From the IMG/VR virus record IMGVR_UViG_2974518997_000001, positions 33,758 through 97,757 of that record: DNA of 64,000 bases, one strand, 5' to 3'. The notes below the pieces were generated by a model. The model was not told the origin of the DNA, made no database searches, and worked only from the letters and a program-made list of their open reading frames with translations. Made by a program: the position numbers and the translations under genes. Shown one piece after another: positions 4,343-42,770 of the stretch (positions are counted from its first letter, which is position 1; each line of letters begins with the position of its first letter). This DNA comes from a virus. Taxonomy: Duplodnaviria > Caudoviricetes.

Positions 4343-4377
4343 GTGCTACACTCGTAACACGGAAGGAAGGGCCTTCC
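4343..4377 (+). promoter_or_regulatory. Extended -10 promoter (GTGCTACACT) plus 5' AAGGG-loop hairpin, copy 1
   Basis: TGnTACACT, then GGAAGG-AAGGG-CCTTCC at 4361-4377. Confidence 0.75.
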
Positions 4378-4396
4378 AGAATGAGGTATCACACAA

Positions 4397-4669
4397 ATGA
4401 ACGCATACACCGTCGACAATTCGCGCGCTGCGTGGGAAATCCGCAAGAATGCGATCGCGCTGGAATCACGCAGAGCTGGGGACGTCGCGCCGGGCGATCA
4501 CGTTCGATTCAACAACGCTCATGTCCGCGTGGTTCGGGACGTCGTCGCTGAAAACGGCAAGGTCAAGATTTTCGTGCACGACAGCAACGGAATGTGGTGG
4601 CTCGACGCCGATCACATGCTGGACATCGTGGCGGAGTCCGTGCCGGTCGGGGTCGGCTGGGTTCGCTGA
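4397..4669 (+). CDS. Hypothetical protein (self-contained cassette inside the tail module)
   Basis: GAGG RBS; own promoter and terminator. Confidence 0.7.
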   Translation: MNAYTVDNSRAAWEIRKNAIALESRRAGDVAPGDHVRFNNAHVRVVRDVVAENGKVKIFVHDSNGMWWLDADHMLDIVAESVPVGVGWVR

Positions 4670-4680
4670 GAATCACACTG

Positions 4681-4712
4681 AGCCCGTCACGGTACGCCGT
4701 GGCGGGCTTTTT
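4681..4712 (+). terminator. Rho-independent terminator
   Basis: AGCCCGTCACGG...CCGTGGCGGGCT followed by a T run. Confidence 0.8.
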
Positions 4713-4727
4713 CACGTCCTCACCGGT

Positions 4728-4766
4728 GTGCTACAGTGGTAACACGAGCTGGGAAGGGCCCAGCTC
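4728..4766 (+). promoter_or_regulatory. Extended -10 promoter (GTGCTACAGT) plus 5' AAGGG-loop hairpin, copy 2
   Basis: GAGCTGGG-AAGGG-CCCAGCTC at 4746-4766. Confidence 0.75.
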
Positions 4767-4781
4767 AGAACGGAGCATCAC

Positions 4782-5111
4782 ATGAACACCGCAACACGTA
4801 GCACGGACGTCGACCGCCTTCACGGCGAGCTGAGCGAAGAGCTGTCGATCTTCGCAGTTCGTGAGAACGCCGGGACGTTCATTTGGCACGGCTGGGGCCA
4901 CACGCCGCAGGGCATCGGCGGGATCGCATTCGCCTGTGGCACGGAATTCCCGGTGGAGGCCGAGTCGCCGAAGCGCTTCAAGCGCATCTACAAGACGTGC
5001 CCGGATTGCTTGCGAGCACTCGATGACATGGCCGACGCGATCCGGCAAGCCAACGCTCGAATCGAGGCGGCGGCGGAATCACGGCCGGCGCGCGTCACGC
5101 GGGTGAAGTAA
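4782..5111 (+). CDS. Hypothetical protein with H/C and CxxC residues (possible Zn binding; cassette gene)
   Basis: GGAG RBS; own promoter and terminator. Confidence 0.7.
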   Translation: MNTATRSTDVDRLHGELSEELSIFAVRENAGTFIWHGWGHTPQGIGGIAFACGTEFPVEAESPKRFKRIYKTCPDCLRALDDMADAIRQANARIEAAAESRPARVTRVK

Positions 5112-5123
5112 GGATCACACCAG

Positions 5124-5157
5124 TGAGGGCTCCTCGTTCGCGAGGGGCCCTCATTTT
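5124..5157 (+). terminator. Rho-independent terminator
   Basis: TGAGGGCTCCTCG-TTCG-CGAGGGGCCCTCA-TTTT. Confidence 0.8.
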
Positions 5158-5288
5158 GCGTGATGCACTCGTACCACGTCCCCATGCCTGCGAGCACGCG
5201 TACGGAGCGCACAGCGCATCCTGCAGGGTCTGACGCAGATCACGCTGACGCTACCCATGCCCTCGCTCGTAGACTGATCCCAGGATCG

Positions 5289-5376
5289 TGATTCATTCCT
5301 TTCCTCTTTCCTCCTCTCCCTCCCCCGTAGGGGAGGGAGGAGGAGAGGAATAGAGGAATTAGGGAAAGAGGAATCG
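5289..5376. repeat. Polypyrimidine/hairpin/polypurine inverted-repeat element, copy A
   Basis: 5289-5314 is the exact reverse complement of 41073-41098. Confidence 0.8.
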
Positions 5377-5780
5377 TGGGCGGCGCGCACATCAAGATCA
5401 ACTCCTCGAGGTGGGATCGCATTGTCACGCGCGCGATCGGCGCATCGACGGACCGCGCGGTCACGCGACAGAAGGGCAAGCTGCGCGACGAGGTCTACCG
5501 CGCGGGGCGCGTGCAGTCCGGCCGCATGGCGAACGAGTGGGAGCACACCGAGATCCCGGCGCTCACTCCGCGCGGGAAGCGCTACGCGATCTGGTCGCCC
5601 TTCGAGTACACCAAGTACCAGAACGACGGCACCCGGGGATCGAAGCCGATCCCGCCGAGGAAGGCCCTTCGGATCCCCGTCGGCGGCGGTGCGATCTTCC
5701 GCACGAAGTCCGGCCCGATCACCGCGGCGCGCTTCATGCAGCGGGCGTCCGGCTCGATGACTGTGAGCGACTGGTTGTAG
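5376..5780 (+). CDS. Neck or tail-completion protein (HK97 gp10-like position)
   Basis: Basic 134 aa; EYTKYQNDGT resembles the YA.YVE.GT motif; synteny. Confidence 0.55.
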   Translation: MGGAHIKINSSRWDRIVTRAIGASTDRAVTRQKGKLRDEVYRAGRVQSGRMANEWEHTEIPALTPRGKRYAIWSPFEYTKYQNDGTRGSKPIPPRKALRIPVGGGAIFRTKSGPITAARFMQRASGSMTVSDWL

Positions 5781-5785
5781 CTCAG

Positions 5786-5802
5786 GTAGCGTAGTACGCT
5801 AC
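5786..5802 (+). promoter_or_regulatory. Palindrome GTAGCGTA-G-TACGCTAC containing a -10 (TACGCT) for a likely leaderless tail chaperone mRNA
   Basis: Perfect 17-bp palindrome; TANNNT 7 nt before ATG 5808; no SD sequence. Confidence 0.5.
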
Positions 5803-5807
5803 GTCGC

Positions 5808-6182
5808 ATGGAACTCATCGAAATCGAAGCCAAGGCCGCCGAGCTCATCCCGATCAAGCTCGTGGGCGTGCAGTACCTCATCAACCCGCCCAAGACCTCG
5901 CTGACGATGGATATGGCTGACACCATGGGCAGCTTCACGGCGAAGAAGCTCGACGAGAACGCGTCGGACGCCGAGAAGCAGCAGGCCATGAAGGAGAGCC
6001 GCAAGGCCTCGAAGAAGACCCGCGAGGCGCTGAACACGTGGATGCTCCAGGCGTTTGGTGCGGACGGCTTCCAGGAGATCCAGAAGCGCCTGAAGGACCC
6101 GCTCGACAAGCTCGACATCGAGCACGTCATGGAGCTGATGAACGCCGTCGCGGAGGCGAAGACGGGAAACCCTACTACGTGA
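5808..6182 (+). CDS. Tail assembly chaperone (gpG-like)
   Basis: Upstream of tape measure; ends just after slippery G GGA AAC. Confidence 0.85.
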   Translation: MELIEIEAKAAELIPIKLVGVQYLINPPKTSLTMDMADTMGSFTAKKLDENASDAEKQQAMKESRKASKKTREALNTWMLQAFGADGFQEIQKRLKDPLDKLDIEHVMELMNAVAEAKTGNPTT

Positions 6183-6520
6183 TCTACCGCTACGGCCAGA
6201 TCGCCCTCGAGAACTGGGCTGATCTGGACGGCTATGCGGTAGGTCACAACATGCCTGACCTCCGGTCCCTCCCGCTCGAGCGCTTCTGCAACTGGATGTG
6301 GTGGATGCTCACCAAGAACGCGAAGAACGAGCAGGAGAAGGAGAAGCTGCGCGCGAAGATCTGGCGACCGCCTCCCGAGCAGCTGAAGAAGTCGGTTCCG
6401 ATCGACAAGAGGTCGCCGTGGAGCGCGGAGAACGAGATGAAGGCGTTCGGCGCTCTGAAAATGCAGCTGATGCCCAGCGCCCCGCCGAAGCCGAGCGCCA
6501 CGCCGGAGGCTGTGTCGTAA
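6164..6520 (+). CDS. Tail assembly chaperone -1 frameshift extension (gpGT-like)
   Basis: GGGAAAC at 6164-6170; -1 frame reads GKPYYVIY... to stop at 6520. Confidence 0.85.
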   Translation, partial: GKPYYVIYRYGQIALENWADLDGYAVGHNMPDLRSLPLERFCNWMWWMLTKNAKNEQEKEKLRAKIWRPPPEQLKKSVPIDKRSPWSAENEMKAFGALKMQLMPSAPPKPSATPEAVS

Positions 6521-6619
6521 TACACTGACGGGGAGAGCCGTGATGACGACCCGCTCTCCTCGTCTATGATCCGCTCGCTGGCCTTGGGCCGGAGCCTCCC
6601 GCGATAGGAGGCTTCACCC

Positions 6620-9600
6620 ATGTCCATGGGCGGATCAGTCGGCGACGCGTATATCGAGATCGGTGCTGAGGACGACACCACCGCCGACCTCGCGAAGATC
6701 AGCAAGAAGCTGGTCTCCACGCTCGCCGCCGCTAGCGATCGCGCCGGGCGCGAGATGCAGAAGCGCTTCGCGGACTCCGCCGACAAGGCGGGCGACTCGA
6801 TGGTGCGGCATCTGCAGGATGACTTCCAGCGGATCCAGCACGACATCGACAAGCTCACCGAAGACCAGATCATCAAGATGGAGGCCGAGCTTCACTCGAC
6901 GGCCGCCCGAGCGGAGCTGCTCTGGCTCGCTCGAGATCGTGTGGTCGACCTCTGGGTGAACATCAAGGGCAACGCGGCCGCGGAGCTGACGGCGATCGCG
7001 AAGGGCCTCTCAGGCGTCTCGACGATCACCGCCTGGAAGGACGCGCTGATCGGCATGGCGTCCTCGATGCCGCAGCTGATCACCCGGTTCGCCGCCCTCG
7101 GGGGAGCGATCGCGGCCATCGTCGCGCCGATCATGAACGCGATGTCGGCGATCGCGCCGCTCGCATCCTCCCTCGGTCAGATCTTCCCGCTGATCCTCGC
7201 GGGCCCTGCGGTGTTCTCGGCGTTCGCCGCGCAGATCGCTGTCGTCGCCATGGCCTTCTCCGGACTCGCGGACGCGGTGGGCCCTGCCGGCCAGCGCGCG
7301 AGCGAGGTCATGACCCAGCTCGGCGACCGGTTCAAGGACCTGCAGAACGTCGTCCAGGAGAACTTCTGGGCGAACTTCATCGACGGCTTCGAGCGGGTCA
7401 CGGGCGCGCTCATGCCGCAGCTGGAGTCGGGCCTGTCGAGCCTCGCCAGCGTGATGGGTAGTGCCTTCTCGGGCGTCGCCGACGCGATCGCCGCGCAGCT
7501 GGGTGACAGCGGCCTGGACACCTTCTTCCAGAACGTCTCGCAGGGCGTGACGAACGCGGCACCGGGTCTCGCGGCCTTCGCTGCAGCGTTCACCCGGATC
7601 ATGGAGCAGGGCGCGACGCTGCTGCCCGCCTTCGGTGACTGGATCACGAAGATCGGCAACCAGTTCAACAACTGGGCGCAGAACGCGGACATCGCCGGTC
7701 TCATCGAGAACGCCGCCGTGCAGATGGGTCACCTCTGGAACGTGGCGAAGGAGCTGTGGGGCGTCCTCTCGGGCATCTTCACCGCGATGGACATCGGCAA
7801 GTCGACAGGCCTCGAGTCGCTGGCGGCCACGCTCGGCAAGATCAGCGACATCGTGAACGGCGCGAGCTTCCAGAGCGCGATGTACGTGGTCTTCGCGGGC
7901 GCGGCCGAGGGTGCCTCCCGCCTCTCGGATGCGCTCATCCCGATCGGTGAGTCGCTCGAGCGGCTCGCACCGCTGATCAGCAATGCCCTCTCCCAGCTGG
8001 CTGGAGGGGCCGCTGACGCGCTCATCGGCATCTTCGACGCCCTGGCCCAGCCCATCGCTATGGACGGCCTCCAGGCTGCCATCGACGGTCTCTCCGGCCT
8101 GATGACGAACATCGACTGGGGAGCGGCTGGCGTCGCCGTTGGCGCGATCGGCTCGGCGATCGGCACGCTCGCCCCGCTCGTGACGAACCTGGTGAACGCG
8201 CTGCTCCCGCTCGTCGGCCCGATCGTGGACGGCCTCGCGGGCGTCGGCGCGGTGCTGATGACGCTGCTCACCCCGGTCGTGCAGCTGATCGGTCCGCTCA
8301 TCGCGACCGAGGGCGCGGTCATGGCGATCGTCGGAGCCTTCGTGCTCTGGAAGGGCATCTCGGCGATCATCACCGGCGTGCAGGCCGCGATGCTGGCGTA
8401 CCGAGGGATCATGATCGGCGTCACCGCGGCGCAGACGGGCATGACCGTCGCGCAGAACGCGGGCAAGGCCTCGATGATCGGCTTCGCGGCCACCACGATC
8501 GCGCAGGGCGTCGCCGCTGCAGCGAGCTGGGTCGCGAGCATGGTCCGCATGGGCGCTGCAGCTGTCGCTCAGGCCGCGGTGGCCGCCGGTGCGTGGCTGG
8601 CGCAGACCGCTCGGGTGCTCTCGTACGTGGTCGTGAACGGCACCGCGCTGGCGCTGTCCTGGATCGGCAACATGGTGAAGATGGGCGCGGCCGCTGTCGC
8701 GCAGGCAGCCGTCGCCGCGGGAGCGTGGATCGCGGGCGTCGCGCGCACGGTCGCCGCGCTCGCGGTGCAGGCGGCAGCGTTCGTCGCGCAGAAGGCTGTG
8801 ATGGTCGGCATGCAGGTCGCCACGGCGGCCGCGACGGCTGCGCAGTGGCTCTTCAACGCCGCTCTCTCGGCGAACCCGATCGGCATCATCATCACCCTGA
8901 TCGCGGCGCTCGTCGCCGGTCTCGTGTGGTTCTTCACGCAGACCCAGCTCGGCCAGGAGATCTGGTCGAACTTCATGACGTGGCTGCAGGAGGCGTGGAC
9001 GAACATCTCCACGTTCTTCTCGGAGTTGTGGACGAACATCACCACCTTCTTCTCCGAGGCGATCAACAACATCGTCTCCTTCGTCACGGACAACTGGGGC
9101 CTCCTCCTCTCCCTCCTCATCGGCCCGATCGGTCTCGCGATCCAGTGGATCACCGAGAACTGGGACGGCATCATGAAGTGGCTCAACGAGGTCATCACCG
9201 GCTTCGTCAGCTGGTGGAACGACACGTGGACCGCGGTCGGGCAGTTCATCTCGGACGTGTGGACGAACATCGTCACGTGGGTCACCGACACGTGGAACGG
9301 CTTCATTTCCTGGATAACCGGGATCATCAACACCTTCGTGTCGAACTGGAACCGGACCTGGACGGCCGTCGGCCAGTTCATCTCGGATGCCTGGAACCGG
9401 CTCGTCGCGACGGTGCGCGCGGTCTGGAACCAGTGGATCTCCTGGATCAACGCGGTGATCGCGACCTTCGTCGCCTTCTGGAACCGGACGTGGACCAACG
9501 TCGGAAACTTCATCCGCGACGCGTGGAACAACATCGTGGACGCGGTAACTTCGGCATGGAACCGCTTCTGGGCGACCCTCAGCGCGGGCATCGCGGTCTT

Positions 9601-10312
9601 CGTGGCGTACTGGAACCAGACGTGGTCGAACGTCGGCTCCTTCATCTCGGACATCTGGAACAACATCGTCAGCTGGGTCACGAGCGCGTGGAACCGGCTG
9701 AGCGGCCAGGTGCAGGCGGGCCTCAACGGATTCATCGGCTTCTGGTCGAGCATCTGGAACAACGTCTCGAACACGGTCCAGAACGTCTGGAACAACGTGA
9801 TGAGCTTCATCGGCGGCATCCCGGGACGCATCATGGGCGTCTTCTCGGGTGCCGGCAGCTGGCTCGTCGGCATTGGCCGCGACGTGATCAACGGTCTCTT
9901 CAACGGTATCCGCGGCATGTGGGACAACATGATGGGCTGGATCAACAACGCGGTCGGTGGCCTCATCGACACCGTCGGTGGTCTGCTCGGCATCGCGTCG
10001 CCCTCGAAGGTCTTCCGCCGGATGGGTGAGTACGTCACCGAGGGCTTCCTTGACGGCATCTCGCAGCTCGGGAAGCTCGCGGACAAGTCCCTCGAGGTGT
10101 CCATGCGCGGCGTGGTCGGCACGGCGGACGAGAGCCTCCGCAGCATCACGCCGGCCACGAGCGACAACGGCGGCAACACCACGAACACCACGACGATCGA
10201 CCGCTCTCGGAACTTCAGCGATGGCGCGTTCGTCATCCCCAACGCGGACCCGTACGCTGTGGCTCGGGAGGTCGCGAACGCGGCCGCAGAAGATTCGGAG
10301 CTGGCAGCATGA
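6620..10312 (+). CDS. Tape measure protein
   Basis: 1230 aa; Ala/Gly-rich; Trp-periodic repeats; GIASPSKVF motif; follows the chaperones. Confidence 0.95.
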   Translation: MSMGGSVGDAYIEIGAEDDTTADLAKISKKLVSTLAAASDRAGREMQKRFADSADKAGDSMVRHLQDDFQRIQHDIDKLTEDQIIKMEAELHSTAARAELLWLARDRVVDLWVNIKGNAAAELTAIAKGLSGVSTITAWKDALIGMASSMPQLITRFAALGGAIAAIVAPIMNAMSAIAPLASSLGQIFPLILAGPAVFSAFAAQIAVVAMAFSGLADAVGPAGQRASEVMTQLGDRFKDLQNVVQENFWANFIDGFERVTGALMPQLESGLSSLASVMGSAFSGVADAIAAQLGDSGLDTFFQNVSQGVTNAAPGLAAFAAAFTRIMEQGATLLPAFGDWITKIGNQFNNWAQNADIAGLIENAAVQMGHLWNVAKELWGVLSGIFTAMDIGKSTGLESLAATLGKISDIVNGASFQSAMYVVFAGAAEGASRLSDALIPIGESLERLAPLISNALSQLAGGAADALIGIFDALAQPIAMDGLQAAIDGLSGLMTNIDWGAAGVAVGAIGSAIGTLAPLVTNLVNALLPLVGPIVDGLAGVGAVLMTLLTPVVQLIGPLIATEGAVMAIVGAFVLWKGISAIITGVQAAMLAYRGIMIGVTAAQTGMTVAQNAGKASMIGFAATTIAQGVAAAASWVASMVRMGAAAVAQAAVAAGAWLAQTARVLSYVVVNGTALALSWIGNMVKMGAAAVAQAAVAAGAWIAGVARTVAALAVQAAAFVAQKAVMVGMQVATAAATAAQWLFNAALSANPIGIIITLIAALVAGLVWFFTQTQLGQEIWSNFMTWLQEAWTNISTFFSELWTNITTFFSEAINNIVSFVTDNWGLLLSLLIGPIGLAIQWITENWDGIMKWLNEVITGFVSWWNDTWTAVGQFISDVWTNIVTWVTDTWNGFISWITGIINTFVSNWNRTWTAVGQFISDAWNRLVATVRAVWNQWISWINAVIATFVAFWNRTWTNVGNFIRDAWNNIVDAVTSAWNRFWATLSAGIAVFVAYWNQTWSNVGSFISDIWNNIVSWVTSAWNRLSGQVQAGLNGFIGFWSSIWNNVSNTVQNVWNNVMSFIGGIPGRIMGVFSGAGSWLVGIGRDVINGLFNGIRGMWDNMMGWINNAVGGLIDTVGGLLGIASPSKVFRRMGEYVTEGFLDGISQLGKLADKSLEVSMRGVVGTADESLRSITPATSDNGGNTTNTTTIDRSRNFSDGAFVIPNADPYAVAREVANAAAEDSELAA

Positions 10313-12243
10313 CGTACGAGGGCTACGTAGCATTCGGCGGCAACGAGGTCGTGAACAACGAGCGCGCCCGAGGCTATGCGCAGACGGCTGAGTGCCCGAT
10401 GTTCTGGCTGAAGGACGACCCGGACCAGGGCCTCGCGCCCGCGCTCGGGGACATCCCCTACGTCTACAGCGACATCACGGCGTCGCCCTGGTACGACTCC
10501 ACGATCGACGAGATCAGCCGCCGCTTCTTCGGCGTCTACGGCCTCGAGGTCCGAGGGGTCGAGGACTCCACGCGCACGGCGACGGTGACCGAGTCGATCG
10601 ACGACGGCGGTGTCATCGGCCGCCCTCGCTCGAGCACGCGCAACGTGACGGTGCGAGCCCTGCTCCTCGGCAAGGGCCGCGACGCGATCGAGTACGGCAT
10701 GAGCTGGATGGCGATGCAGCTGGACGCCGACGCGTGCGGCCAGGTCTCTCGGGACTGCGGCGTCGCGACGATGGACGTCTTCTCCACGGCTCCGCCCGTG
10801 CGCGGTGAGGTCCCGGACATCTCGGACTGGCAGATCACCCGCCGGAACCTGCTGACGAATCCTCGCATCATCAGCAGCAACACGGGCTGGACGTCGGCGT
10901 ACTCCTCGAGCGCGACAGCGTCGGGCATGCAGGTGGTCATGGCCGGCGGCCTGGCACCCGAGACGATCATGATGTCCTCCGCTGCGATCGCGACGACTCC
11001 CGGCGAGAACCGCTCGGTCGGCATCACGATCGAGGTGCCCGCGGGCTTCCCGGCGATGACGTTCAGCGTGGTCGCCTTCGCTGAGGGACCCGAGGTCATC
11101 CTCAGCCGCTCCGGCTCTGTGACGATCCAGCCTGGCGAGAGCCGCTACCTCCCGGCCAGTGCGCCGCGCTCGGCTCCCTCGGGCACGACGGCCGTGCGCC
11201 TGCAGGTGCGCGTCGGCGGCACCGAGCCGTCGCCGCTGCTTTCCCGCTTCTACGCGCGCGAGGCGATCATGGCCGACCAGCGCGACCCGGGCGCGTTCTT
11301 CAGCGGCGCGACGCCGAACACCGAGACCGAGCGCTTCACCTGGACCGGCACCGCAAACGCGTCGACCACGACCGAGGAGCGCAAGCTCCCGATCCTCCGG
11401 CCGCGGACGGACGCCGAGTACGGCGAGCTCGTCGACTACGCCCGGCGCTTCATGCGCAACTCCGCGGTGATCAGCGGCCCGCTCAAGCTCACCGAGCAGG
11501 CCTCGGGAGACTTCTGGGCCTACGAGGTGCAGTTCGTGCTGGCCGGCGGGCCGTCGATCCTCGGTGTGACGAAGTCGATCGCGCTGTCTCCGTCGACGCC
11601 GACCGTGGTGCAGGACATCGTCTACAACCTGATCCCGTACACGAACGCCGTCCTCGGCTCGGGCAGCATCGTGATCGCGACGAACCTCGCGCAGAACCCG
11701 AGCGTGGAGACGAACGCGACGGGCTGGTCGATCTCGAACAGCGTCATCTCCGGCTCGTCGCCGACGGCGTTCCTCACGGGCGCGCGCAGCACCGACGTGG
11801 CGGCGATCGGAACCGCGAGCTTCCGCGTGCGACTGCTCGGCGACAACGGCGCGACGGTGGTCTCCGCCTCGGTCTGCGACATGATCGGATACCAGGACGT
11901 GCCGATCCCGGCAGGCGTCGGTCGTCGCGTGTCTCTCAGCCTCTGGGGCGCGGTCTTCGCCAGCGCTGGTGCGACGCCGAACACTGCTCTGCAGAGCCTC
12001 AACGCGCGCTACCTGTTCCTGAACAACGGGGCCGCGGTCGGCGGCACGACGGTCTTCGGAACCACGCCGACCGACGAGTTCGGCGGCAAGGTGCACTCGC
12101 TGATCGGCCTGACCGTGCCTGACTCCGCGACCCACATTCGAGTGAGCCTGGCTGCTCGAGTGACCTGGACGTCGTCCGCCGCAGCTGGCCAGAACAGTGA
12201 CATCCGTCTGTACGGGGACGCGCTGATGGTGAGTGTGCCGTGA
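10309..12243 (+). CDS. Minor tail protein (Dit position) with carbohydrate-binding-like inserts
   Basis: First gene after TMP; RRNLLTNP and NLAQNPSVE motifs. Confidence 0.8.
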   Translation: MTYEGYVAFGGNEVVNNERARGYAQTAECPMFWLKDDPDQGLAPALGDIPYVYSDITASPWYDSTIDEISRRFFGVYGLEVRGVEDSTRTATVTESIDDGGVIGRPRSSTRNVTVRALLLGKGRDAIEYGMSWMAMQLDADACGQVSRDCGVATMDVFSTAPPVRGEVPDISDWQITRRNLLTNPRIISSNTGWTSAYSSSATASGMQVVMAGGLAPETIMMSSAAIATTPGENRSVGITIEVPAGFPAMTFSVVAFAEGPEVILSRSGSVTIQPGESRYLPASAPRSAPSGTTAVRLQVRVGGTEPSPLLSRFYAREAIMADQRDPGAFFSGATPNTETERFTWTGTANASTTTEERKLPILRPRTDAEYGELVDYARRFMRNSAVISGPLKLTEQASGDFWAYEVQFVLAGGPSILGVTKSIALSPSTPTVVQDIVYNLIPYTNAVLGSGSIVIATNLAQNPSVETNATGWSISNSVISGSSPTAFLTGARSTDVAAIGTASFRVRLLGDNGATVVSASVCDMIGYQDVPIPAGVGRRVSLSLWGAVFASAGATPNTALQSLNARYLFLNNGAAVGGTTVFGTTPTDEFGGKVHSLIGLTVPDSATHIRVSLAARVTWTSSAAAGQNSDIRLYGDALMVSVP

Positions 12244-12273
12244 TCATCGACTCGAACGTGAAGGAGGGCTGAC

Positions 12274-21842: not shown

Positions 21843-21884
21843 GTGCTACAATAGTATTACGGAAGGGCGAAGGGCGCAACTCCG
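21843..21884 (+). promoter_or_regulatory. Extended -10 promoter (GTGCTACAAT) plus 5' AAGGG-loop hairpin, copy 3
   Basis: GCG-AAGGG-CGC with outer CGGA/TCCG pairs. Confidence 0.7.
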
Positions 21885-21895: not shown

Positions 21896-22180
21896 ATGAG
21901 CGACGAGAAGGTGCAGTACCGGCACCAAGTCATCGAGAAGTGGGTCAGCGAGTTCCGACCCAGCCTGACCGACTCGAACATCAAGACCTTCCTCGAGGAG
22001 TTCGTGATCGAGTGGGAAGAGGCCGAGCAAGCTCAGATCTGCGACCACTGCGGAGATCCTCTCGACGGCACTGAGCCGGAGATGATCGACGAGCAAGACG
22101 GCACGCTCGCGCACAGCGAGTGCTTGGCCGAGGCGTACCGGGATCCGCGCGAGGATTCCGGCTACTGGAAGGAGGACTGA
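21896..22180 (+). CDS. Hypothetical protein (CxxC...HxxC)
   Basis: GAAAGGA RBS. Confidence 0.7.
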   Translation: MSDEKVQYRHQVIEKWVSEFRPSLTDSNIKTFLEEFVIEWEEAEQAQICDHCGDPLDGTEPEMIDEQDGTLAHSECLAEAYRDPREDSGYWKED

Positions 22181-29163: not shown

Positions 29164-29199
29164 GTGCTACACTTGTACTACAGGAACGAAGGGCGTTCC
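29164..29199 (+). promoter_or_regulatory. Extended -10 promoter (GTGCTACACT) plus 5' AAGGG-loop hairpin, copy 4
   Basis: GGAACG-AAGGG-CGTTCC at 29183-29199. Confidence 0.75.
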
Positions 29200-29216: not shown

Positions 29217-29441
29217 ATGGCACTGGATCTGCAGGGATCAGCGACATCGCTCAAGAAGCGCGAGAAGGGCAAGCGCATCAAGTGCTCCGACTGCGGCGAG
29301 ACGGTGAAGCTGAAGAAGGAGATGGTGGAGCAGGACGGGAAGAAGTACCACCTCGTCTGCGCCGGATTCATCCACGCTCCGAAGCTCGCACCCTGCCCCG
29401 ACTGCTTCATGGTCGCCCCGTGCTTCTGCGTTGGGACCTGA
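29217..29441 (+). CDS. Small Cys-rich Zn-finger protein
   Basis: CSDC...HLVC...CPDC..PCFC. Confidence 0.7.
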   Translation: MALDLQGSATSLKKREKGKRIKCSDCGETVKLKKEMVEQDGKKYHLVCAGFIHAPKLAPCPDCFMVAPCFCVGT

Positions 29442-34314: not shown

Positions 34315-34553
34315 GCGCCGCGGAAGGACGGCTGACGCCGGCGATGGCGATCCAGCAGCTGAAGCTGGCGATCGACTCCTCGATCCACGGCTCGCTGGAT
34401 GCGGACATCATCCCCGAGGAGTCGACAGGCGTCTACTTCGAGGTCGACGAGGTGGGTGACACCTACGTCAACGTCACCGTCGAGGACCACGTAGAGGACG
34501 GCGATCCGGTGAGCCTGCAGATCCTGATCAAGGAAGGGTGGGCGCAGCCGTGA
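34311..34553 (+). CDS. Hypothetical acidic protein
   Basis: ATGA overlap. Confidence 0.65.
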   Translation: MSAAEGRLTPAMAIQQLKLAIDSSIHGSLDADIIPEESTGVYFEVDEVGDTYVNVTVEDHVEDGDPVSLQILIKEGWAQP

Positions 34554-36198: not shown

Positions 36199-36562
36199 CG
36201 AGTTCGATGGACTGGCGGCCTACGCAACGAAGAAAATGAAGCGCACCCGGATCTGGAGGCGCGTGTGGATCGGCTACATGGTCCTCAGCTACACGATCGC
36301 CGCGTACTTCGCGTGCACGGCGCTGATGAGCATCTACCGCGCGACGATCGGCGGCGACTCAGGGTGGCACTGGATCATCGCGGGCGCGCAGGTGCTCGTG
36401 GCGATCGTCTGGGCGACGCTGAACCCGAAGAGCGCGCGGAGGGGCATCGCTCGGCACGATGCCACGCTGGAGCGTCTGCGCGAGGACCGCGGCTTCTACC
36501 GTCTGCAGGCCGACCTGTACCGCGAGGAGGAGGCGGACGATGCCGATCGCGAAGAGAGGTGA
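36173..36562 (+). CDS. Two-TM membrane protein
   Basis: Two hydrophobic helices. Confidence 0.7.
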   Translation: MFPDQKLADEFDGLAAYATKKMKRTRIWRRVWIGYMVLSYTIAAYFACTALMSIYRATIGGDSGWHWIIAGAQVLVAIVWATLNPKSARRGIARHDATLERLREDRGFYRLQADLYREEEADDADREER

Positions 36563-36785
36563 CCGTGTGCGGATCACCGGCGTCTTGCCGGACGATCCTC
36601 ACCCGCTTCCCATCGGCCAGGAGGGCACGGTGATCAACGTGATGAACGCGTCGACCTCCCTCGAGCAGATCCACGTGGACTGGGACGGCCTCTCGACGCG
36701 GATCATGCTCCTGCGCACGGATCCCTTCGAGGTGATCCCGCCGAAGAGACGCTCCCGTGGTACACTGGTATCACACCCCGAGTGA
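36540..36785 (+). CDS. DUF4314-like SH3-fold protein
   Basis: GDRVR....DDP.P.PIG.EGTV...QIHVDWD. Confidence 0.7.
   Translation: MPIAKRGDRVRITGVLPDDPHPLPIGQEGTVINVMNASTSLEQIHVDWDGLSTRIMLLRTDPFEVIPPKRRSRGTLVSHPE
36757..36772 (+). promoter_or_regulatory. Extended -10 promoter (GTGGTACACT), no AAGGG hairpin
   Basis: Motif variant upstream of 36795. Confidence 0.5.
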
Positions 36786-36794
36786 GGAGTCAAC

Positions 36795-38030
36795 GTGAGC
36801 AACCCGAACCCAGATTTCTGGCTGACAACGGCCACGGGCGAGTCGAACCAGATCACTTACTACCAGGAGCGAACCGCCAAGCTGCAGAAGAGCCTCCGGC
36901 GCAGTCGGTGGCTGGACGTGCTCCTCGGCGCGGGAGTGCTCACGAACGCCTACTTCGCGCTCAAGGGCTTCACCTGGGATCTGAACCTCGTCATGGCCCC
37001 GATCCACGTCGGCATCATGGCAGGCGCGGGCTTCGGACTCGGGTGGCTCCAGCCGCGAACTCGGCGGAGCATGCGGGAGTCGATCGAGAACTACAAGAAG
37101 CCGATCGAGGAGGCTGCGCACCGCGCGGTGACCGCGATGCAGAAGTACGAGCTGACGAGCTGGCAGAAGGAGTTCGACGCTCTGCTCCCGAAGCCGGACA
37201 ACCGCACGGCCGAGCAGATCCTGTACGGCACCGCGGCGTCGATGGGACTGCACGCGGAGAAGGAGATCGCCTTCCGCATGGCGGTCGACCAAGCTCGCCG
37301 TGAGGCGCGCATGATGCAGGCTGAGGCGCGGGCCACCCTCGAGGAGCAGACTCGCGCCGCTCAGGCGGAAAAGGATCGCCGCGAGAAGCTAGAGCGCGAC
37401 CTGGAGGCGGCGCGAATCCGCGATGAGGAGCGCGAGCGTCGGCGGCAGAGCAAGAAGGTGCACGACTTCACCGACTGGCAGGGCGACCAAGATCCCCGGC
37501 GCGTCTGGGCGGATGACATCTGCCTCGCGTGCGACGAGCCCTTCGGGACAGCGAACTACCACGTGCATTTCGACGAGATGGGCCGGATGGTGAGGACCAC
37601 GCCGGTGCGACTCGGACCCGGCCAGACGCCGGCGACGAACTACAAGCTCCTCGAGGAGGAGATGGCCGAGCTTGCGGAGCAGAGCAGGAACGTCCCGGAG
37701 CTGGTGGAGGCGCGGAGGCGCAACAAGGAGATGCTCGACAATCTCATCGCGCAGGGCGTGGACCTGAACGCGGTAGCCGACAGCCTGCAGAAGGCGCTCA
37801 CCAGCGTGCGGGACTCCAACGCCCGGAAGGAAGAGGTTCTCGAGGTGCTCACCGTCCTCGAGAACCAATCCGACCGGGAGACCGCTGCCAAGGTGTTCAC
37901 GGAGCTGAATGCCCCGAAGCAACAGCAGATGCCGATCCGGTGCACGGAGTGCGGCCAGTACGTCGCGAAGGGCGGCTGGTCGAAGCACAATCACGGCCGC
38001 GAGAAGGGCGAGTTCCAGGTCACAGCGTGA
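36795..38030 (+). CDS. Membrane-anchored coiled-coil protein with Zn-finger-like motifs
   Basis: Two N-terminal TM segments; CxxC...H motifs; GAGGAG RBS. Confidence 0.7.
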   Translation: MSNPNPDFWLTTATGESNQITYYQERTAKLQKSLRRSRWLDVLLGAGVLTNAYFALKGFTWDLNLVMAPIHVGIMAGAGFGLGWLQPRTRRSMRESIENYKKPIEEAAHRAVTAMQKYELTSWQKEFDALLPKPDNRTAEQILYGTAASMGLHAEKEIAFRMAVDQARREARMMQAEARATLEEQTRAAQAEKDRREKLERDLEAARIRDEERERRRQSKKVHDFTDWQGDQDPRRVWADDICLACDEPFGTANYHVHFDEMGRMVRTTPVRLGPGQTPATNYKLLEEEMAELAEQSRNVPELVEARRRNKEMLDNLIAQGVDLNAVADSLQKALTSVRDSNARKEEVLEVLTVLENQSDRETAAKVFTELNAPKQQQMPIRCTECGQYVAKGGWSKHNHGREKGEFQVTA

Positions 38031-38160
38031 CCGGTGGGCCGAGGATCTCTCGGTGCCACGAATTCTCAGGCGGGGCGGCTCTCAGAGCCATTCTCCCGCG
38101 TCAAACGCGATACACTGGTAACACGGGCCGTTGCCCGAAAAATCAAGGAAGCGAGGGGTC

Positions 38161-40179
38161 GTGACTGACGACGTAAAGCCGAAGAATCTGTTCGTTCCAG
38201 GTGGACCGGAGCGGTATCAGCATCAGAAACGAGGACTCCAAAAGATCATCCAGACGCGCGGTGTCTGCGCGCTTCTGTTCGACCCGGGCACGGGTAAGAC
38301 GGCGACGACGCTGGACTTCATCAGCCTCCTCGCGCTGAAGAGTCCGGACAAGCTCGACTCGTTCGGCCGTCTGGTGAAGGAGGCTCGCGTCCTGGTGGTC
38401 GCGCCGCTCGCGGCGATCGACACGTGGGTGCTCCAGTCCTCGAAGTGGGTCGCCGACGGCGTGAACTTCTGGGCGGAGGCTCTCGGCGGATCGATCCTCG
38501 ATCGCGCGGAGACGATGGCCGCTCGCGGTGGTCAGCCGTTCCTCGAAACGGTCTCTCGCTTCATCATGAAGGCGCAGGACCTCGAGGACCAGGACATGAA
38601 CATTCCGGTCCCGTTCGCGTACACGCCTCCGCGCACGCCGCGCTGGGTGTCGGCTCTGAAGAAGAGCGCGACGTTCCTGCACGAGAGCGGCATCGATGAG
38701 AAGCGCTCGCGCACGTCGCTCAAGACGAAGTTCAGCCGGTCGTACCCGATGATCGAGAAGAAGGTGATCCACGAGACGGTCGACGAGCTGTGCGCGACGG
38801 AGTGGGCGAAGCCTCTCAAGCGCGCTCCTCGGGCGCTGAACGTCGACAAGGCGATCGAGGTCTCGTACCGCGCGGACAGCCGGGGCAGTGACCGCCCGCT
38901 GACGCTCACCGAGGGTCCGGACGGCCTGGGCAAGGACAAGCCTCGCATCGTGCTCCTGGCGACGAACTTCGACACGTTCCAGACGCGGCAGATGGTGCCG
39001 GGCACGTCGAAGTCCATGGCCGATCAGCTCCTCGAGGCTGTGCGCCGGTTCGATCCGGACCTGGTGGTCGTGGACGAGGCTCACAAGATCAAGAGCCCTC
39101 GGTCGAACGTGTCCCGGCTCCTCGGTCGCATCGGCGAGAACGTGCCGCGGCGCATCGCGCTCACGGGCACGATCATGCCGGCGGGACCTCTCGACGTCTG
39201 GGGCGTGTGGCGGTTCCTCGAGCCGTTCGCGTTCGGACCGACCCTGCCGGACGGCACGAAGCGACGGCTGTCGTACGAGGGCTTCAAGGAGAAGTACGCG
39301 GTGCTCGGCGGCTACATGGGCAAGGAGGTGAAGGGCTACAAGAACCTCGACGAGATGCAGAACATCATGTCGATCAACTCGTCGGTGGCCCGGAAGGCGG
39401 ACGCTCTGCCGGACCTCCCGAAGGCGCTGGACGTCGAGGTGCCGATCATCCTGAACCCGGCTGAGCTGAAGGCCTACAAGGACATGAAGCAGGGCTTGGT
39501 GGCTCAGCTGATCGATCCGGCGACGGGCGGTCTGCTCCCGGCCACGGCAGGCTCCCGGCTCACGCAGATGCTCAGGCTCCGCCAGATCACCTCGGGACAC
39601 CTGCCTGACGACAACGGCGGCCTGCACCGCCTCGGCGACTCGAAGGTGGCGGCGATCGCGTCGATCGCGGAGGACAAGCTGATCGGCGAGAACCGCATCG
39701 TGATCTTCTGCTACTTCATCGACGAGCTGCACGCTCTGCAGAAGAAGCTGGAGCGGGACGGCAACGAGCTCATGATCATCGACGGCTCGACACCGGCGAC
39801 CGAGCGGCTGAAGATGCGTCAGCGCTTCGGTGACCGGGACGTGAAGGACCGGATCATCATGATCACCCAGATCCGGACGATGAGCCTGGCGGTCAACGAG
39901 CTGGTGACGGCGAGCCACGCGATCTTCGGCTCGCTGCCGCAGACGCGCGATGACATCGTCCAGGCGCGTGACCGGCTCGACCGCATCGGCCAGACGCTCC
40001 CGTGCACGTTCTGGTTCGTGCTGGCACCGGCGACGATCGACACCGCGATCTACCAGTCGTACCGGGACAAGACGAGCCTCGAGGGTGCGGTGCTCGCGCA
40101 CATTCTCGACCTCGATCCCGAGACGGCTGAGCAGATCATGGTGCTCACGCCGGATCAGCTGGCGTCGATTGGTGCATGA
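38161..40179 (+). CDS. SNF2/SF2 DNA helicase
   Basis: DPGTGKT; VVAP; DEAH; LTGT; LRQI; QARDRLDRIGQ. Confidence 0.92.
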   Translation: MTDDVKPKNLFVPGGPERYQHQKRGLQKIIQTRGVCALLFDPGTGKTATTLDFISLLALKSPDKLDSFGRLVKEARVLVVAPLAAIDTWVLQSSKWVADGVNFWAEALGGSILDRAETMAARGGQPFLETVSRFIMKAQDLEDQDMNIPVPFAYTPPRTPRWVSALKKSATFLHESGIDEKRSRTSLKTKFSRSYPMIEKKVIHETVDELCATEWAKPLKRAPRALNVDKAIEVSYRADSRGSDRPLTLTEGPDGLGKDKPRIVLLATNFDTFQTRQMVPGTSKSMADQLLEAVRRFDPDLVVVDEAHKIKSPRSNVSRLLGRIGENVPRRIALTGTIMPAGPLDVWGVWRFLEPFAFGPTLPDGTKRRLSYEGFKEKYAVLGGYMGKEVKGYKNLDEMQNIMSINSSVARKADALPDLPKALDVEVPIILNPAELKAYKDMKQGLVAQLIDPATGGLLPATAGSRLTQMLRLRQITSGHLPDDNGGLHRLGDSKVAAIASIAEDKLIGENRIVIFCYFIDELHALQKKLERDGNELMIIDGSTPATERLKMRQRFGDRDVKDRIIMITQIRTMSLAVNELVTASHAIFGSLPQTRDDIVQARDRLDRIGQTLPCTFWFVLAPATIDTAIYQSYRDKTSLEGAVLAHILDLDPETAEQIMVLTPDQLASIGA

Positions 40180-40472
40180 TGTCTCGCTCGAAGCATGCAC
40201 CCGAGCCAGGGATGATGTTCATCAGCGGCGTCGACTATCACGACGGCGAGCGGTGGCGTCTGTACGTGAACAGCCGGTGGCTGTGGAAGTACGTGCTGGT
40301 CGATCAGAAGACGGCGCAGATCGCGTGGCGCGCGCTGTCGACGCTCGACCGCCTCGAGGTCGCGATCCCCGAGGATGCCGAGGTCTTCCAGGTGCCCGTG
40401 GAGGAGCGCTGGGAGGGTCCGGAGGGCGAGAAGGAGGCCTACCGGAGGCTCGTCGAGGGACTGGCATCGTGA
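40176..40472 (+). CDS. Hypothetical protein
   Basis: Overlap coupling. Confidence 0.65.
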   Translation: MMSRSKHAPEPGMMFISGVDYHDGERWRLYVNSRWLWKYVLVDQKTAQIAWRALSTLDRLEVAIPEDAEVFQVPVEERWEGPEGEKEAYRRLVEGLAS

Positions 40473-40474
40473 CC

Positions 40475-40729
40475 ATGGTCCGCGACTACGAACGGCTGAC
40501 GAAGGCGGACGTGCCCGCATTCGACCAGGAGGCGCTGAAGCTCCTGTGCGAGATGCAGGACGCCGGCTGGCGCGGACGGGTCAGCGTACGGGGTCACGCG
40601 ATCCTGTACGCGCCTGACGGCGTGACGACGGCGGCCTTTGCCCGCTCGTCGCTGCGCGGTCGCTCGGGTCGGAACGCCCGGGCGACGTTCGAGAGATGGA
40701 AGCGCGCACAGAGGGGCGAGGGAGAGTGA
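40475..40729 (+). CDS. HicA-like small protein
   Basis: AGW....RGH..L..PDG pattern; size fits the HicA fold. Confidence 0.5.
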   Translation: MVRDYERLTKADVPAFDQEALKLLCEMQDAGWRGRVSVRGHAILYAPDGVTTAAFARSSLRGRSGRNARATFERWKRAQRGEGE

Positions 40730-41022
40730 CGGCGAAGCGGTACATCTGCAACATCGACGGCTGCACGAAGGAGTTCCACGACGATCGCGGGCTGGGCATC
40801 CACCGGGCGAGCCACCTCGGGCAGAAGGAGAAGTGCCCGCGGTGCGGCAAGCAGGTGAAGTACCTCGACACGCACATGCGTCGAGTGCACACCGAGGACC
40901 CGGAGAAGGTGCTCGAGAGCATCACCTCGCTGTTCGTGGAACTCGAGCTGGCGCGGCAGACCATCACCGAGCTTCGACAGCAGTTGATCGAGGCTCGACA
41001 GCATCACACAGACACACCCTGA
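40726..41022 (+). CDS. Tandem C2H2 zinc-finger protein
   Basis: Cx4Cx12Hx3H followed by Cx2Cx9Hx4H. Confidence 0.75.
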   Translation: MTAKRYICNIDGCTKEFHDDRGLGIHRASHLGQKEKCPRCGKQVKYLDTHMRRVHTEDPEKVLESITSLFVELELARQTITELRQQLIEARQHHTDTP

Positions 41023-41112
41023 TTCCATTCCTCTATTCCATTCCTCCCTCCTCCCTATCTATAGATAGGGAGGGAGGAAAGAGGAAAGGAATGAATCAGG
41101 AAAGGGAATCGA
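41019..41112. repeat. Polypyrimidine/hairpin/polypurine element, copy B (inverted relative to copy A)
   Basis: Central palindrome CCCTATCTATAGATAGGG; shares a 26-mer and GGAATAGAGGAAT with copy A on the opposite strand. Confidence 0.8.
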
Positions 41113-41130
41113 ACGAGAGAAGAGGAACGA

Positions 41131-42489
41131 GTGATTCACGACGAGACGGACTACTTCGACTACGACGGGGAGAAGGTCCAGGCGCACTACAGCAGCCTCA
41201 CGATGCACCGAAAGTGCCCGGAGGCGTGGTTCTTCCGGTACAACCTGGGACTGCGTCAGAGGCCCAGTGGCGGGCCGATGACGTACATGCACGCGGGGTC
41301 TTGGTGGGGCGCTCTGCGCGCGGCGGACATCTACGAGCGCGGACGCCAGATCGGTTCCCTGCTGACCGGCGCGGCGTTCGGGCGACCCTTCGGCGCGACG
41401 GACACCTACAGCGACGACGGGACTCCGGTGCCGAAGTTCGACCCGGCGAGCGTGACGCGCAAGGACGTGCTCATGGCCGCGATGGTCTGGTGGAAGCGTC
41501 TGCCGCAGGAGCACAAGGACGACTTCATCGAGAAGATCGGCAAGCCGCTGGTCCCGCACCTGATCTACACCTTCGAGCAGTGGCGCGATCGCTTCGGCGC
41601 GGAGACGAAGACCGAGCGGCCTCTCGGTGCTGAGGTGTTCTGGAAGCGCCGTCTGCCGCGCCCGGAGGGTGATGCCGCGTGGGCCGGGAACGAGGAGCTT
41701 CCGGAGATGTGGCTTCTCGGGTATGTCGATGAGGTCTACGAGGACACCGAGCGCGGCCTGATCGTCGTGCGCGACCACAAGTTCAACAAGAACATCGGCG
41801 TGCACACGGTCATCGACGACATGATGGACAGTCAGCTCGAGCTGTACGGCTGGGGCATGGGTCCGGCTCTGCAAGCGGCGGGCGTCGACCAGGTGCGCGC
41901 AGTGGCCTACGACCGGGCGAAGAGCGTGGCTCCGAAGCCTCCGACTCTCACGACGGCCGGACGGCTGGCATCACGCGGCGGCGAGCCCTCGGTGAACTCC
42001 TCGGACCTGCGGACCTACCTCGAGTGGGCGAACGGGCCGGAGGGCAACGGCATCGAGTGGCGTGGGGCTGCGATCCCGATGAACAAGGCCGAGAAGGAGG
42101 ATCCCTCCCTCGGGCGTCGGTACAAGGAGGGCGGTGTATATACACCCGAGCCGGCGATCATCGACAAGCTCTCCTCGGAGGCCCAGCGTGCGCAGTGGTT
42201 CCAGCGGAAGCTGATCCCGCTGAACACGAACGTCGTGAAGGCGCATCTGCGCGCGGCGATCGATAGCGCGACGGATATCTGGCGCACGACGAAGCGGGCG
42301 GAGCTGACCGGCGGTGCCTCGAGGAACCTCTCGAACGCGAACTGCCAGTGGTGCGACTTCCAGGCGATCTGCCAGGCGCGCATGCGAGGCGGCAACCAGG
42401 GCGTCTACGACCTCGTGGACTACGGCCTGGTGTCGAAGCGCGGCGAGGTGCTGGCGGGCGGCAAGATCCTCGAGCTGGCGAACTCCTGA
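41131..42489 (+). CDS. PD-(D/E)XK Cas4/RecB-like exonuclease
   Basis: SSL...KCP; GYVD; VRDHK; QL.LY; CxWCDFxxIC. Confidence 0.85.
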   Translation: MIHDETDYFDYDGEKVQAHYSSLTMHRKCPEAWFFRYNLGLRQRPSGGPMTYMHAGSWWGALRAADIYERGRQIGSLLTGAAFGRPFGATDTYSDDGTPVPKFDPASVTRKDVLMAAMVWWKRLPQEHKDDFIEKIGKPLVPHLIYTFEQWRDRFGAETKTERPLGAEVFWKRRLPRPEGDAAWAGNEELPEMWLLGYVDEVYEDTERGLIVVRDHKFNKNIGVHTVIDDMMDSQLELYGWGMGPALQAAGVDQVRAVAYDRAKSVAPKPPTLTTAGRLASRGGEPSVNSSDLRTYLEWANGPEGNGIEWRGAAIPMNKAEKEDPSLGRRYKEGGVYTPEPAIIDKLSSEAQRAQWFQRKLIPLNTNVVKAHLRAAIDSATDIWRTTKRAELTGGASRNLSNANCQWCDFQAICQARMRGGNQGVYDLVDYGLVSKRGEVLAGGKILELANS

Positions 42490-42734
42490 GGAAGGCCCGA
42501 GCCGCGGTGGGACAACGGCGAGAGTGTCCCTCTCCCGCTACCGCGGCTCGGACCGACGCGAGGTCTCGGTCTCGATCTCAGTCACATCGCTCAGGCGTGG
42601 TAGCCGCTATGAATCGGCGCATCATTGACCGTGGGACGGTATCCATGTCCGACTGCCGTCGAGCCTAGCGTGCTACATCGGTCGGAAAGTAATCGGGTCG
42701 GGTATCACATTTTCTCCCACACTCGCGTCCTCCC

Positions 42735-42770
42735 GTGCTACACTTGTACTACAGGGAGGAAGGGCCTCCC
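42735..42770 (+). promoter_or_regulatory. Extended -10 promoter (GTGCTACACT) plus 5' AAGGG-loop hairpin, copy 5
   Basis: GGGAGG-AAGGG-CCTCCC at 42754-42770. Confidence 0.75.

Follow-up and report, generated by a model that had tools for sequence, protein, structure and literature searches.

What is read when a phage message opens with a hairpin whose stem is free to change and whose loop is not? The question arises from a 64-kilobase (kb) stretch of DNA, bases 33,758–97,757 of a phage genome of 97,757 base pairs (bp) (IMG/VR record IMGVR_UViG_2974518997_000001), which was analysed as a whole and is called the window below, and in which five extended −10 promoters are each followed by a hairpin that closes the same AAGGG loop. 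The window has a G+C content of about 65%, and its genes lie nearly all on the plus strand. Sequence comparison places the source among lytic Microbacterium phages, with Rasputia, Leaf and Dewdrop as relatives: Rasputia matches an 8-kb probe at 85.6% DNA identity across 84% of its length, and Leaf and Dewdrop are more distant. All are lytic siphoviruses placed in Rogerhendrixvirus, and their annotations contain no integrase, repressor, sigma factor or RNA polymerase. The comparisons reported here indicate a leader-RNA element that is real, selected and apparently undescribed, embedded in a promoter-operator cassette. Coordinates are window positions unless marked as genome, L001 (Rasputia) or L118 (Leaf).

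The promoter motif GTGCTACANT occurs exactly five times in the window, always on the plus strand, at 4343, 4728, 21843, 29164 and 42735. These are the sites given in a preliminary description made from the letters of the window; shuffled sequence yields a mean of 0.06 such matches, and no shuffle gives five. A hairpin follows each −10 element after 7–9 nucleotides (nt), with the arms that had been proposed (GGAAGG/CCTTCC, GAGCTGGG/CCCAGCTC, CGGA..GCG/CGC..TCCG, GGAACG/CGTTCC and GGGAGG/CCTCCC), and all five share one AAGGG loop on a G-C pair. A correction concerns the third site, where GAAGGGC stands twice in tandem and the stem is two-tier. One further copy, the sixth, is found beyond the window, at genome 4373–4408, right after the terminase gene, with the stem CACGGGG/CCCCGTG. 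Across both strands of the whole 97,757-bp genome the pattern TGnTAnAnT has eight matches, all on the plus strand and all upstream of start codons, and the AAGGG hairpin is present at six of them. AAGGG is also the commonest loop among the 172 plus-strand hairpins with a stem of at least 6 bp and a 5-nt loop (five copies, against at most three for any other), a count that leaves aside the AAGGG copy with a 3-bp inner stem. Unrelated phage loci amounting to about 3.7 Mb, searched on both strands, held four such hairpins, part of that DNA having been preselected for GAAGGGC. In all six cassettes the hairpin sits in both the minimum-energy and the centroid fold of the predicted leader.

The preliminary description had seen in the differing stems a within-genome covariation, and had proposed a search of related genomes as a check; the covariation is borne out, and the search extends it. 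AAGGG hairpins occur at orthologous positions in Rasputia (seven) and Leaf (five), which with the six copies of the present phage make a set of 18. The seven nucleotides G-AAGGG-C are invariant in all 18, and the stems are not: they change in compensatory fashion between orthologues as well as within the genome. DNA identity among these three sequenced relatives with the exact loop is 75–86% where they can be aligned. The stem of cassette 1, for example, is GGAAGG here, GGAGG in Rasputia and GGTCGG in Leaf; that of cassette 4 is GGAACG here, CGGGCCG/CGGCCTG in Rasputia and CAGGCCG/CGGCCTG in Leaf; and the outer stem of cassette 3 goes from CGGA/TCCG here to AGGG/CCCT in both relatives. When the 18 hairpins are aligned (alignment A1), 88.2% of cells are paired as against 56.4% in shuffles, none of 500 of which reaches 88.2%, and the covariation score is 0.76 as against 0.19; relatedness inflates these shuffle tests, yet the variation in A1 lies mostly between non-orthologous copies with unrelated stems. 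Controls in which the pairing partner was slid along the alignment, which preserve relatedness, are paired at 31–47%. Both sides change in six of the seven pairs, and G-U-type pairs occur in several stems (CGGGCCG/CGGCCTG, GGTCGG/CCGGCC). Taken together, these data support the view that a single strand is under selection for its fold, and the simplest candidate is RNA.

The '−10' sequence is itself the left part of an 18-bp inverted repeat, GTGnTAC-N4-GTAnCAC, whose mirror half had been missed in the preliminary description. The repeat came to light in a mismatch-tolerant search with the promoter motif, in which every site came up on both strands; the nGTAnCAC conserved behind the −10 element mirrors GTGnTAC. 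At 28 sites in the three phages the half-sites match at five to six of the six specified positions, and the right-half consensus is exactly the reverse complement of the left, for which the chance is about 4^-6. Pairing is absent at the n positions, and for this reason we read the dyad as the DNA site of a dimeric protein rather than as an RNA stem; it is probably an operator overlapping the extended −10 promoter. TGn stands directly upstream of the TAnnnT hexamer, as in sigma-A-type extended −10 promoters, with GTGcTACAmT in all six cassettes, and a direct reading of the promoter sequences found no conserved −35 element. The asymmetric centre of the dyad (A-n-T-n) gives the last T of TACAnT and so makes the promoter directional. 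Transcription would start at the A of the closing CAC, 7 nt past the hexamer, which is the usual spacing, and the dyad would then span about −17 to +2.

With this start, the predicted leader is 37–38 nt long in all six cassettes although the stems vary from 6 to 9 bp, and the hairpin begins at +2 to +4. A separate and ordinary Shine-Dalgarno (SD) sequence lies between the hairpin and the start codon (GAGG, GGAG, AAAGGA, AGGGAAG, GGGAUG or AGGAG), in a stretch that is not conserved among the cassettes. The 3′ end of the hairpin lies 11–21 nt ahead of the ATG in 17 of the 18 copies, and the loop 26–30 nt before the ATG, at about +12 to +18 of the predicted transcript. The exception to the loop spacing is Rasputia 6944 (L001), a weaker hairpin with arms TCATG/CATGA whose AAGGG stands 6 nt before the ATG, with no other SD. 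Another Rasputia copy, at 38257 (L001), lies about 92 nt from the nearest dyad promoter and 13 nt from its ATG. Since these two copies break the link to the promoter and keep the link to the start codon, the sequences point to a role at the ribosome-binding site (RBS) no less than at the 5′ end; the spacing of the hairpin is held more constant to the start codon than to the promoter, a point missed in the preliminary description. The annotated starts of Rasputia genes 13 and 64 (L001:6907 and L001:37730) fall on the GTG of the promoter dyad, and translation probably begins instead at the ATGs that follow the hairpin and SD, at about 6955 and 37787.

One cassette heads a small-gene/ligase block after the terminase gene, and two head single small genes that stand between the head-tail and the tail-chaperone genes; the others head the DNA polymerase block, a block after the primase/helicase gene and a block after the Cas4-like exonuclease gene. 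None precedes a portal, capsid or tail gene. The idea of one early regulon, put forward in the preliminary description, is made plausible by this restriction to non-structural blocks, while the early timing itself is presumed; the cassettes may plausibly be early units of the host polymerase. The first genes behind the six cassettes are mutually unrelated and are not paralogues by BLASTP, and Pfam and PHROGs gave no informative family for them or for a 699-residue protein. Three of the six encode small, Cys-rich, zinc-ribbon-like proteins (4782–5111, CPDC; 21896–22180, CDHC...HSEC; 29217–29441, CSDC...CPDC), one of which has a weak TRASH-domain match below the Pfam cut-off. Between the head-tail and tail-chaperone genes, 4343–4708 forms a complete one-gene unit of promoter/dyad, hairpin, one open reading frame (ORF) of 90 codons without family, and terminator, and cassette 2 starts 20 nt further on. 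This unit probably encodes a highly expressed small protein. The same rhythm of promoter, gene and terminator is found in Rasputia and Leaf.

Table 1. Promoters, leader hairpins and associated features in the window.
Position	Strand	Feature	Remarks
4343..4360	+	Cassette 1 promoter/dyad GTGCTAC-actc-GTAACAC, extended −10 TGcTACACT	Half-sites 6/6; putative start A 4359, from −10 spacing
4361..4377	+	Cassette 1 hairpin GGAAGG-AAGGG-CCTTCC	Followed by SD GAGG and ATG 4397 (90-residue ORF 4397–4669)
4680..4708	+	Strong intrinsic terminator: 13-bp stem, UACG loop, five U	Region fold −26.8 kcal/mol; missed by simple scan
4728..4745	+	Cassette 2 dyad GTGCTAC-agtg-GTAACAC with extended −10	Half-sites 6/6
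4746..4766	+	Cassette 2 hairpin GAGCTGGG-AAGGG-CCCAGCTC	SD GGAG, ATG 4782 (109-residue Cys-rich ORF); z = −3.3
5160..5177	+	Degenerate dyad GTGATGC-actc-GTACCAC, −10 A to G (TGCAcT)	Kept at Rasputia 38029 (L001) and Leaf 39460 (L118)
21843..21860	+	Cassette 3 dyad GTGCTAC-aata-GTATTAC with extended −10	Half-sites 5/6; heads replication block
21860..21884	+	Cassette 3 two-tier hairpin CGGA-agg-GCG-AAGGG-CGC-aac-TCCG	Second GAAGGGC in 5′ arm; ATG 21896
29164..29181	+	Cassette 4 dyad GTGCTAC-actt-GTACTAC with extended −10	Half-sites 5/6; behind primase/helicase gene
29183..29199	+	Cassette 4 hairpin GGAACG-AAGGG-CGTTCC	ATG 29217 (74-residue Cys-rich ORF)
36757..36774	+	GTGGTAC-actg-GTATCAC, no leader hairpin	Half-sites 6/6; 22-nt leader to GTG 36795
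38107..38139	+	GCGATAC-actg-GTAACAC (no TG), then 5′ hairpin CGGGC-cgtt-GCCCG	Same class; before helicase gene
42735..42752	+	Cassette 5 dyad GTGCTAC-actt-GTACTAC with extended −10	Half-sites 5/6; behind Cas4-like exonuclease gene
42754..42770	+	Cassette 5 hairpin GGGAGG-AAGGG-CCTCCC	ATG 42789
53382..53421	+	GTGGTAC-aatt-GGATCAC, then 5′ hairpin CGCTTAT-gccacgg-ATAAGCG	Same class; before AAA-ATPase gene

The AAGGG hairpin marks a subset, six of about ten, of one promoter class. The preliminary description had rightly set apart similar −10 motifs that lack the loop: the one at 36757 has no hairpin, those at 38107 and 53382 have different hairpins, and the one at 58335 precedes a tRNA cluster. 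Leaving aside the degenerate dyad at 5160, eight of the ten intact promoters of the class carry a 5′-terminal hairpin of some kind that begins a few nt at most from the predicted start, two of them with other loops (38107 and 53382). A 5′-terminal hairpin is a general habit of these leaders, within which the AAGGG loop defines a subclass. The leaders at 38125–38160 and 53399–53435 (plus strand) form a second class, sharing GAAAA(A)UCAAGG(G/A)AG, which runs into the SD after the 5′ hairpin; it also occurs in Rasputia (84579) and Leaf (83106). The degenerate dyad stands directly behind a terminator in Rasputia and Leaf and may be an operator-only site or a weak promoter. The site at 58335–58352 reads GTGCTACGCT within the palindrome GAGCGT-gct-ACGCTC, about 190 nt ahead of four tRNA genes (Asn, Gln, Trp, Phe), and is probably the promoter of that cluster. 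Long hairpins of a further kind, with a pyrimidine-rich left and a purine-rich right arm, stand in gaps before genes at 5315–5340, 41049–41074, 43340–43380 and genome 10510–10535; examples are TCTCCCTCCCC-cgta-GGGGAGGGAGG and CGTCTCTCTCC...GGAGAGAGACG.

More distant relatives were compared at the orthologous post-terminase promoter, in loci found through the terminase in IMG/VR (five loci, of which L162 and L165 were informative). L162, with a terminase of 80% identity, has TGATACACT followed by a 5′ hairpin G-AGGGU-C, whose minimum-energy fold is a GGG triloop closed by A-U, and L165 (terminase 63%) has TATACTgGTATTACAC and a hairpin with the loop GGCAG. A metagenome scan gave four loci of about 60% identity, among which L167 and L170 keep the promoter type and not the hairpin loop. 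L167 (terminase 60%; metagenome contig FTBD01000072.1, 4230–4300) has TGGTACAAT and a leader that opens with unpaired AGGAAGGGAA, after which comes a small unrelated hairpin. In L170, which has GTGCTACTAT, the hairpin is missing. Across these loci the promoter type is widespread, the hairpin common and the loop lineage-specific, and lineage-specific loops would fit a co-evolving partner. Searches of IMG/VR through the primase and the Cas4-like exonuclease found no relatives, a scan of genome contigs found no related locus, and Dulem virus 38 (primase 46% identity) has no such motif. Pattern scans of IMG/VR for promoter plus loop gave 115+ and 39 matches, all rejected as chance, mostly in DNA of low GC and without the promoter-hairpin architecture.

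What, then, reads the loop? We tentatively favour, with somewhat less than even confidence, a trans-acting factor that is a sequence-specific protein. By analogy with known cases, a fixed loop and closing pair on a free stem are the classical signature of a protein-read hairpin, and 5 nt on a G-C pair is a typical size for loops read by peptides or proteins, as in boxB and the MS2 operators. Translational operators such as that of T4 gene 43 and the coat-protein hairpins of MS2 and PP7 are likewise short hairpins at the 5′ edge of the RBS with a specific loop and closing pair and a free stem; they differ in being single-gene and autoregulatory with identified proteins, whereas here one loop serves six unrelated first genes. 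The SDs of this genome are varied (n = 124: AGGAG 34, GAGGA 33, GGAGG 21, AAGGG only 7), and because real SDs vary while AAGGG does not, the loop is held more tightly than pairing with the anti-SD would need. Its duplex with the 16S rRNA tail, a sequence taken from general knowledge rather than from the host genome, has −3.3 kcal/mol for AAGGG and −6.9 for GAAGGGC, whereas real SD regions have a median of −9.3. A pentaloop closed by G-C should moreover be a poor partner for 4–5 bp of intermolecular pairing, which argues for a protein reader.

On the protein reading, each site would be the promoter-operator-leader cassette of an early transcription unit. At the DNA level, a host sigma-A-type extended −10 promoter (GTGnTACAmT) would lie inside the dyad, through which a dimeric DNA-binding protein would switch the promoter class. 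The transcript would open at +2 to +4 with a 6–9-bp hairpin of free sequence bearing the AAGGG pentaloop on its G-C pair, followed by the true SD and by the start codon at +37/38. The stem would give the protection against 5′-end-dependent decay usual for a 5′-terminal stem-loop, a likely though generic function by analogy: stem-loops that lie a few nucleotides at most from a triphosphate 5′ end are established guards against that decay. A single factor acting in trans, most likely a protein encoded by the phage or the host, would dock on the invariant loop and closing pair and, bound at the 5′ edge of the RBS, would set the translation or the lifetime of the first cistron, or both, in six operons together. 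It is possible, if doubtful, that the factor is a dedicated RNA-binding protein of the phage lineage that co-evolves with the loop, AGGGU in a sister lineage, and times the translation or decay of early operons, giving a regulon-wide post-transcriptional switch in addition to a DNA operator; if this admittedly speculative switch is real, it is of a kind not characterised in actinobacteriophages.

Several observations weigh against a protein reader. Pfam found no RNA-binding, sigma or RNA polymerase family among 57 small or unknown proteins of the window, and the first genes are, as described, without relation to one another or an informative family. The energy z-scores of the leaders are unremarkable in five of the six cassettes. 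The exact loop is limited to three sequenced relatives, and shared descent could explain part of its invariance. Finally, the loop is SD-like, a trait shared by the L162 loop AGGGU and by the unpaired AGGAAGGGAA that opens the L167 leader; together with the AAGGG at SD distance in Rasputia 6944, this favours the ribosome as the partner.

In that case the loop would be an SD-like decoy on which the 30S ribosomal subunit docks through the 3′ end of its 16S rRNA, at a stabilizing SD (STAB-SD) or standby site and with no dedicated protein, an account that we regard as rather unlikely. The docked subunit would shield the 5′ end from RNase J/E and feed ribosomes to the true SD about 15 nt downstream. 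AAGGG can pair with UCCUU of the actinobacterial 16S tail, and the L162 loop and the start of the L167 leader are SD-like as well; at Rasputia 6944 the loop is probably the SD itself, the second-class leaders of this phage use AAGGGAG or AAGGAAG as SD, and G or purines often predominate in the 5′ arms, as in GGAAGG and GGGAGG. As precedents we name the STAB-SD (PMC4113751) and the SD cores in GGG...CCC motifs of the Cluster K start-associated sequences (PMC3203893) and of Cluster EF Microbacterium phages (PMC7302621). The STAB-SD of Bacillus thuringiensis cry3A, which stands beside other 5′ mRNA stabilisers of Gram-positive bacteria (PMC4113751), is similar in being an SD-like sequence near the mRNA 5′ end that does not serve a start codon, in a host group with 5′-end-dependent decay, and differs in being a strong, unstructured GAAAGGAGG, where the present element has a weak AAGGG held invariant in a pentaloop at six operons. 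What tells against docking is that none of the 18 loops has become a better SD, although the SDs of the genome prefer AGGAG, GAGGA and GGAGG; that the duplex of the loop alone is weaker than at real SD regions; and that a 5-nt loop on a G-C pair would hardly offer four to five contiguous pairs. Pairing with rRNA does not explain the invariant closing G-C either, and the L165 loop, GGCAG, is not SD-like.

A simpler account, which we consider improbable, makes the hairpin a generic 5′ stabiliser with no specific partner, its loop kept for folding, for nuclease resistance or by recent common descent. Stem-loops at 5′ ends are established stabilisers, and the frequency of 5′-terminal hairpins near the predicted start in the dyad class, including the two with other loops, speaks for such a role, as does the same layout with an unrelated loop in L165. 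It does not sit well with stems that have fully diverged while seven loop and closing nucleotides are unchanged in 18 copies, since neutral descent would degrade the loop at least as fast as the stems, and to our knowledge AAGGG is not among the recognised classes of extra-stable loops. The hairpin at Rasputia 38257, moreover, has been kept though it is not 5′-terminal.

The sequence might instead act in DNA, by extrusion or formation in the non-template strand as in phage N4, or with GAAGGGC as a second protein site beside the dyad. The hairpin does abut a clearly DNA-level dyad, N4 early-promoter hairpins have stems and loops of similar size, and with all the genes concerned on one strand, strand bias cannot separate RNA from DNA. 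Yet the annotations of Rasputia and Leaf include no phage RNA polymerase, and Pfam found none among the 57 unknown proteins, a scan that covered proteins of the window and not the large virion proteins outside it; G-U-type pairs, tolerated in RNA, would be mismatched in the complementary DNA strand; and the spacing to the start codon is kept even where that to the promoter is not. A role in DNA seems very unlikely to us.

The preliminary description had offered a boxB- or put-like antitermination site as one possibility, in which the nascent hairpin, alone or with a phage protein, makes RNA polymerase resistant to terminators. This is now disfavoured, and we give it hardly any credence. The likeness to lambda nut, with its boxA and its boxB hairpin read by N, and to HK022 put lies in promoter-proximal RNA hairpins with a purine-rich pentaloop and a variable stem at more than one early operon, and here too the hairpins are small and head long multi-gene blocks. 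The loop, however, is AAGGG in 18 of 18 copies, without the G1...A GNRA-like pattern of boxB, and there is no conserved boxA-like block before or after the hairpin, which only 1–3 nt of RNA precede. HK022 put, which needs no protein to act, has two stems in about 65–70 nt, whereas here a single short-stemmed hairpin of 17–25 nt occupies a leader of 37–38 nt. A resistant polymerase would be pointless at cassette 1, because its unit ends at the strong terminator at 4680–4708 and a new cassette follows immediately, as in Rasputia and Leaf. The hairpins at Rasputia 38257 and 6944 also track the start codon and not the promoter.

Other pairings were tried and rejected. As a kissing-loop partner, a plus-strand hairpin at 43282–43300, CCGCGGG-CCCUU-CCCGCGG, has a loop exactly complementary to AAGGG; it is part of a coding sequence, being placed at the 3′ end of ORF 43055–43333, about 530 nt downstream of cassette 5, the chance of finding one such loop among 172 is roughly 0.1–0.2, its stem is the same in Rasputia and Leaf and does not co-vary, and 5-nt loops pair poorly. 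Re-pairing of the C-rich 3′ arm with the true SD, as a switch, is possible at two to three sites only and is not general, a pseudoknot finds no CCCUU downstream in the leaders, and a terminator is contradicted by the absence of a U tract and by the position of the hairpin after the promoter.

The preliminary description did not recognise the hairpin as a described element, and our searches agree: Rfam, run on the window, returned only the four tRNAs at gathering score, a permissive scan of 4300–4800 gave only irrelevant matches far below threshold, and a search of the literature on this phage group with the terms promoter or stem-loop found no description of it. In a survey of Microbacterium phages the repeats described are others, those of Clusters EC, EF, EG and EI, with neither this cluster nor this motif among them. 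Of the elements described so far the nearest are the start-associated sequences (SAS) of actinophages and their extended form (ESAS), and the STAB-SD, boxB-type sites, PeSL cassettes and single-gene translational operators come after them. The SAS are alike in being repeated, in one orientation, in short gaps before the start codons of non-structural genes, with an SD-like purine core between runs of G and C that are complementary, and in often being paired with an inverted repeat upstream (the ESAS there, the 18-bp dyad here); SAS function is still untested (PMC12699233). The SAS, however, is a fixed 13-nt sequence at the RBS position, 3–8 nt before the start, with no promoter link, while here the stem may vary freely in sequence and fixity is confined to the loop and closing pair; the loop stands 26–30 nt ahead of the start, with a separate SD, and the whole is tied to a promoter. 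The promoter-early stem-loop (PeSL) cassettes of T4-type phages (PMC4122927) are likewise composite modules with an early promoter, repeated where small blocks of accessory genes begin or end, around which the layout varies between close relatives, as it does between cassettes 1 and 2 and Rasputia 37730–38282. Their stem-loop is a terminator upstream of the promoter, with a proposed role in recombination, whereas ours is a downstream leader hairpin with a selected loop; only cassette 2 has an upstream terminator as well.

We regard the element as a variant form of those start-associated and leader motifs that stand unexplained in actinobacteriophages, and its mechanism may be of the kind outlined above. 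These phages are rich in short repeats before gene starts (SAS/ESAS and those of Clusters EC, EF, EG, EI and O), whose functions have stayed untested for more than a decade. The present case is unusually clean, with six cassettes, separable DNA and RNA parts (a promoter in a dyad, and a hairpin), clear covariation and a single loop. It is tractable in Microbacterium foliorum, a host that is harmless and grows easily, for asking how such phages coordinate early expression post-transcriptionally, and could help to identify the factor that reads such leaders. If a stabilising or translation-enhancing role is true, the cassette would also provide, in 55 nt, a compact part for expression in Actinobacteria.

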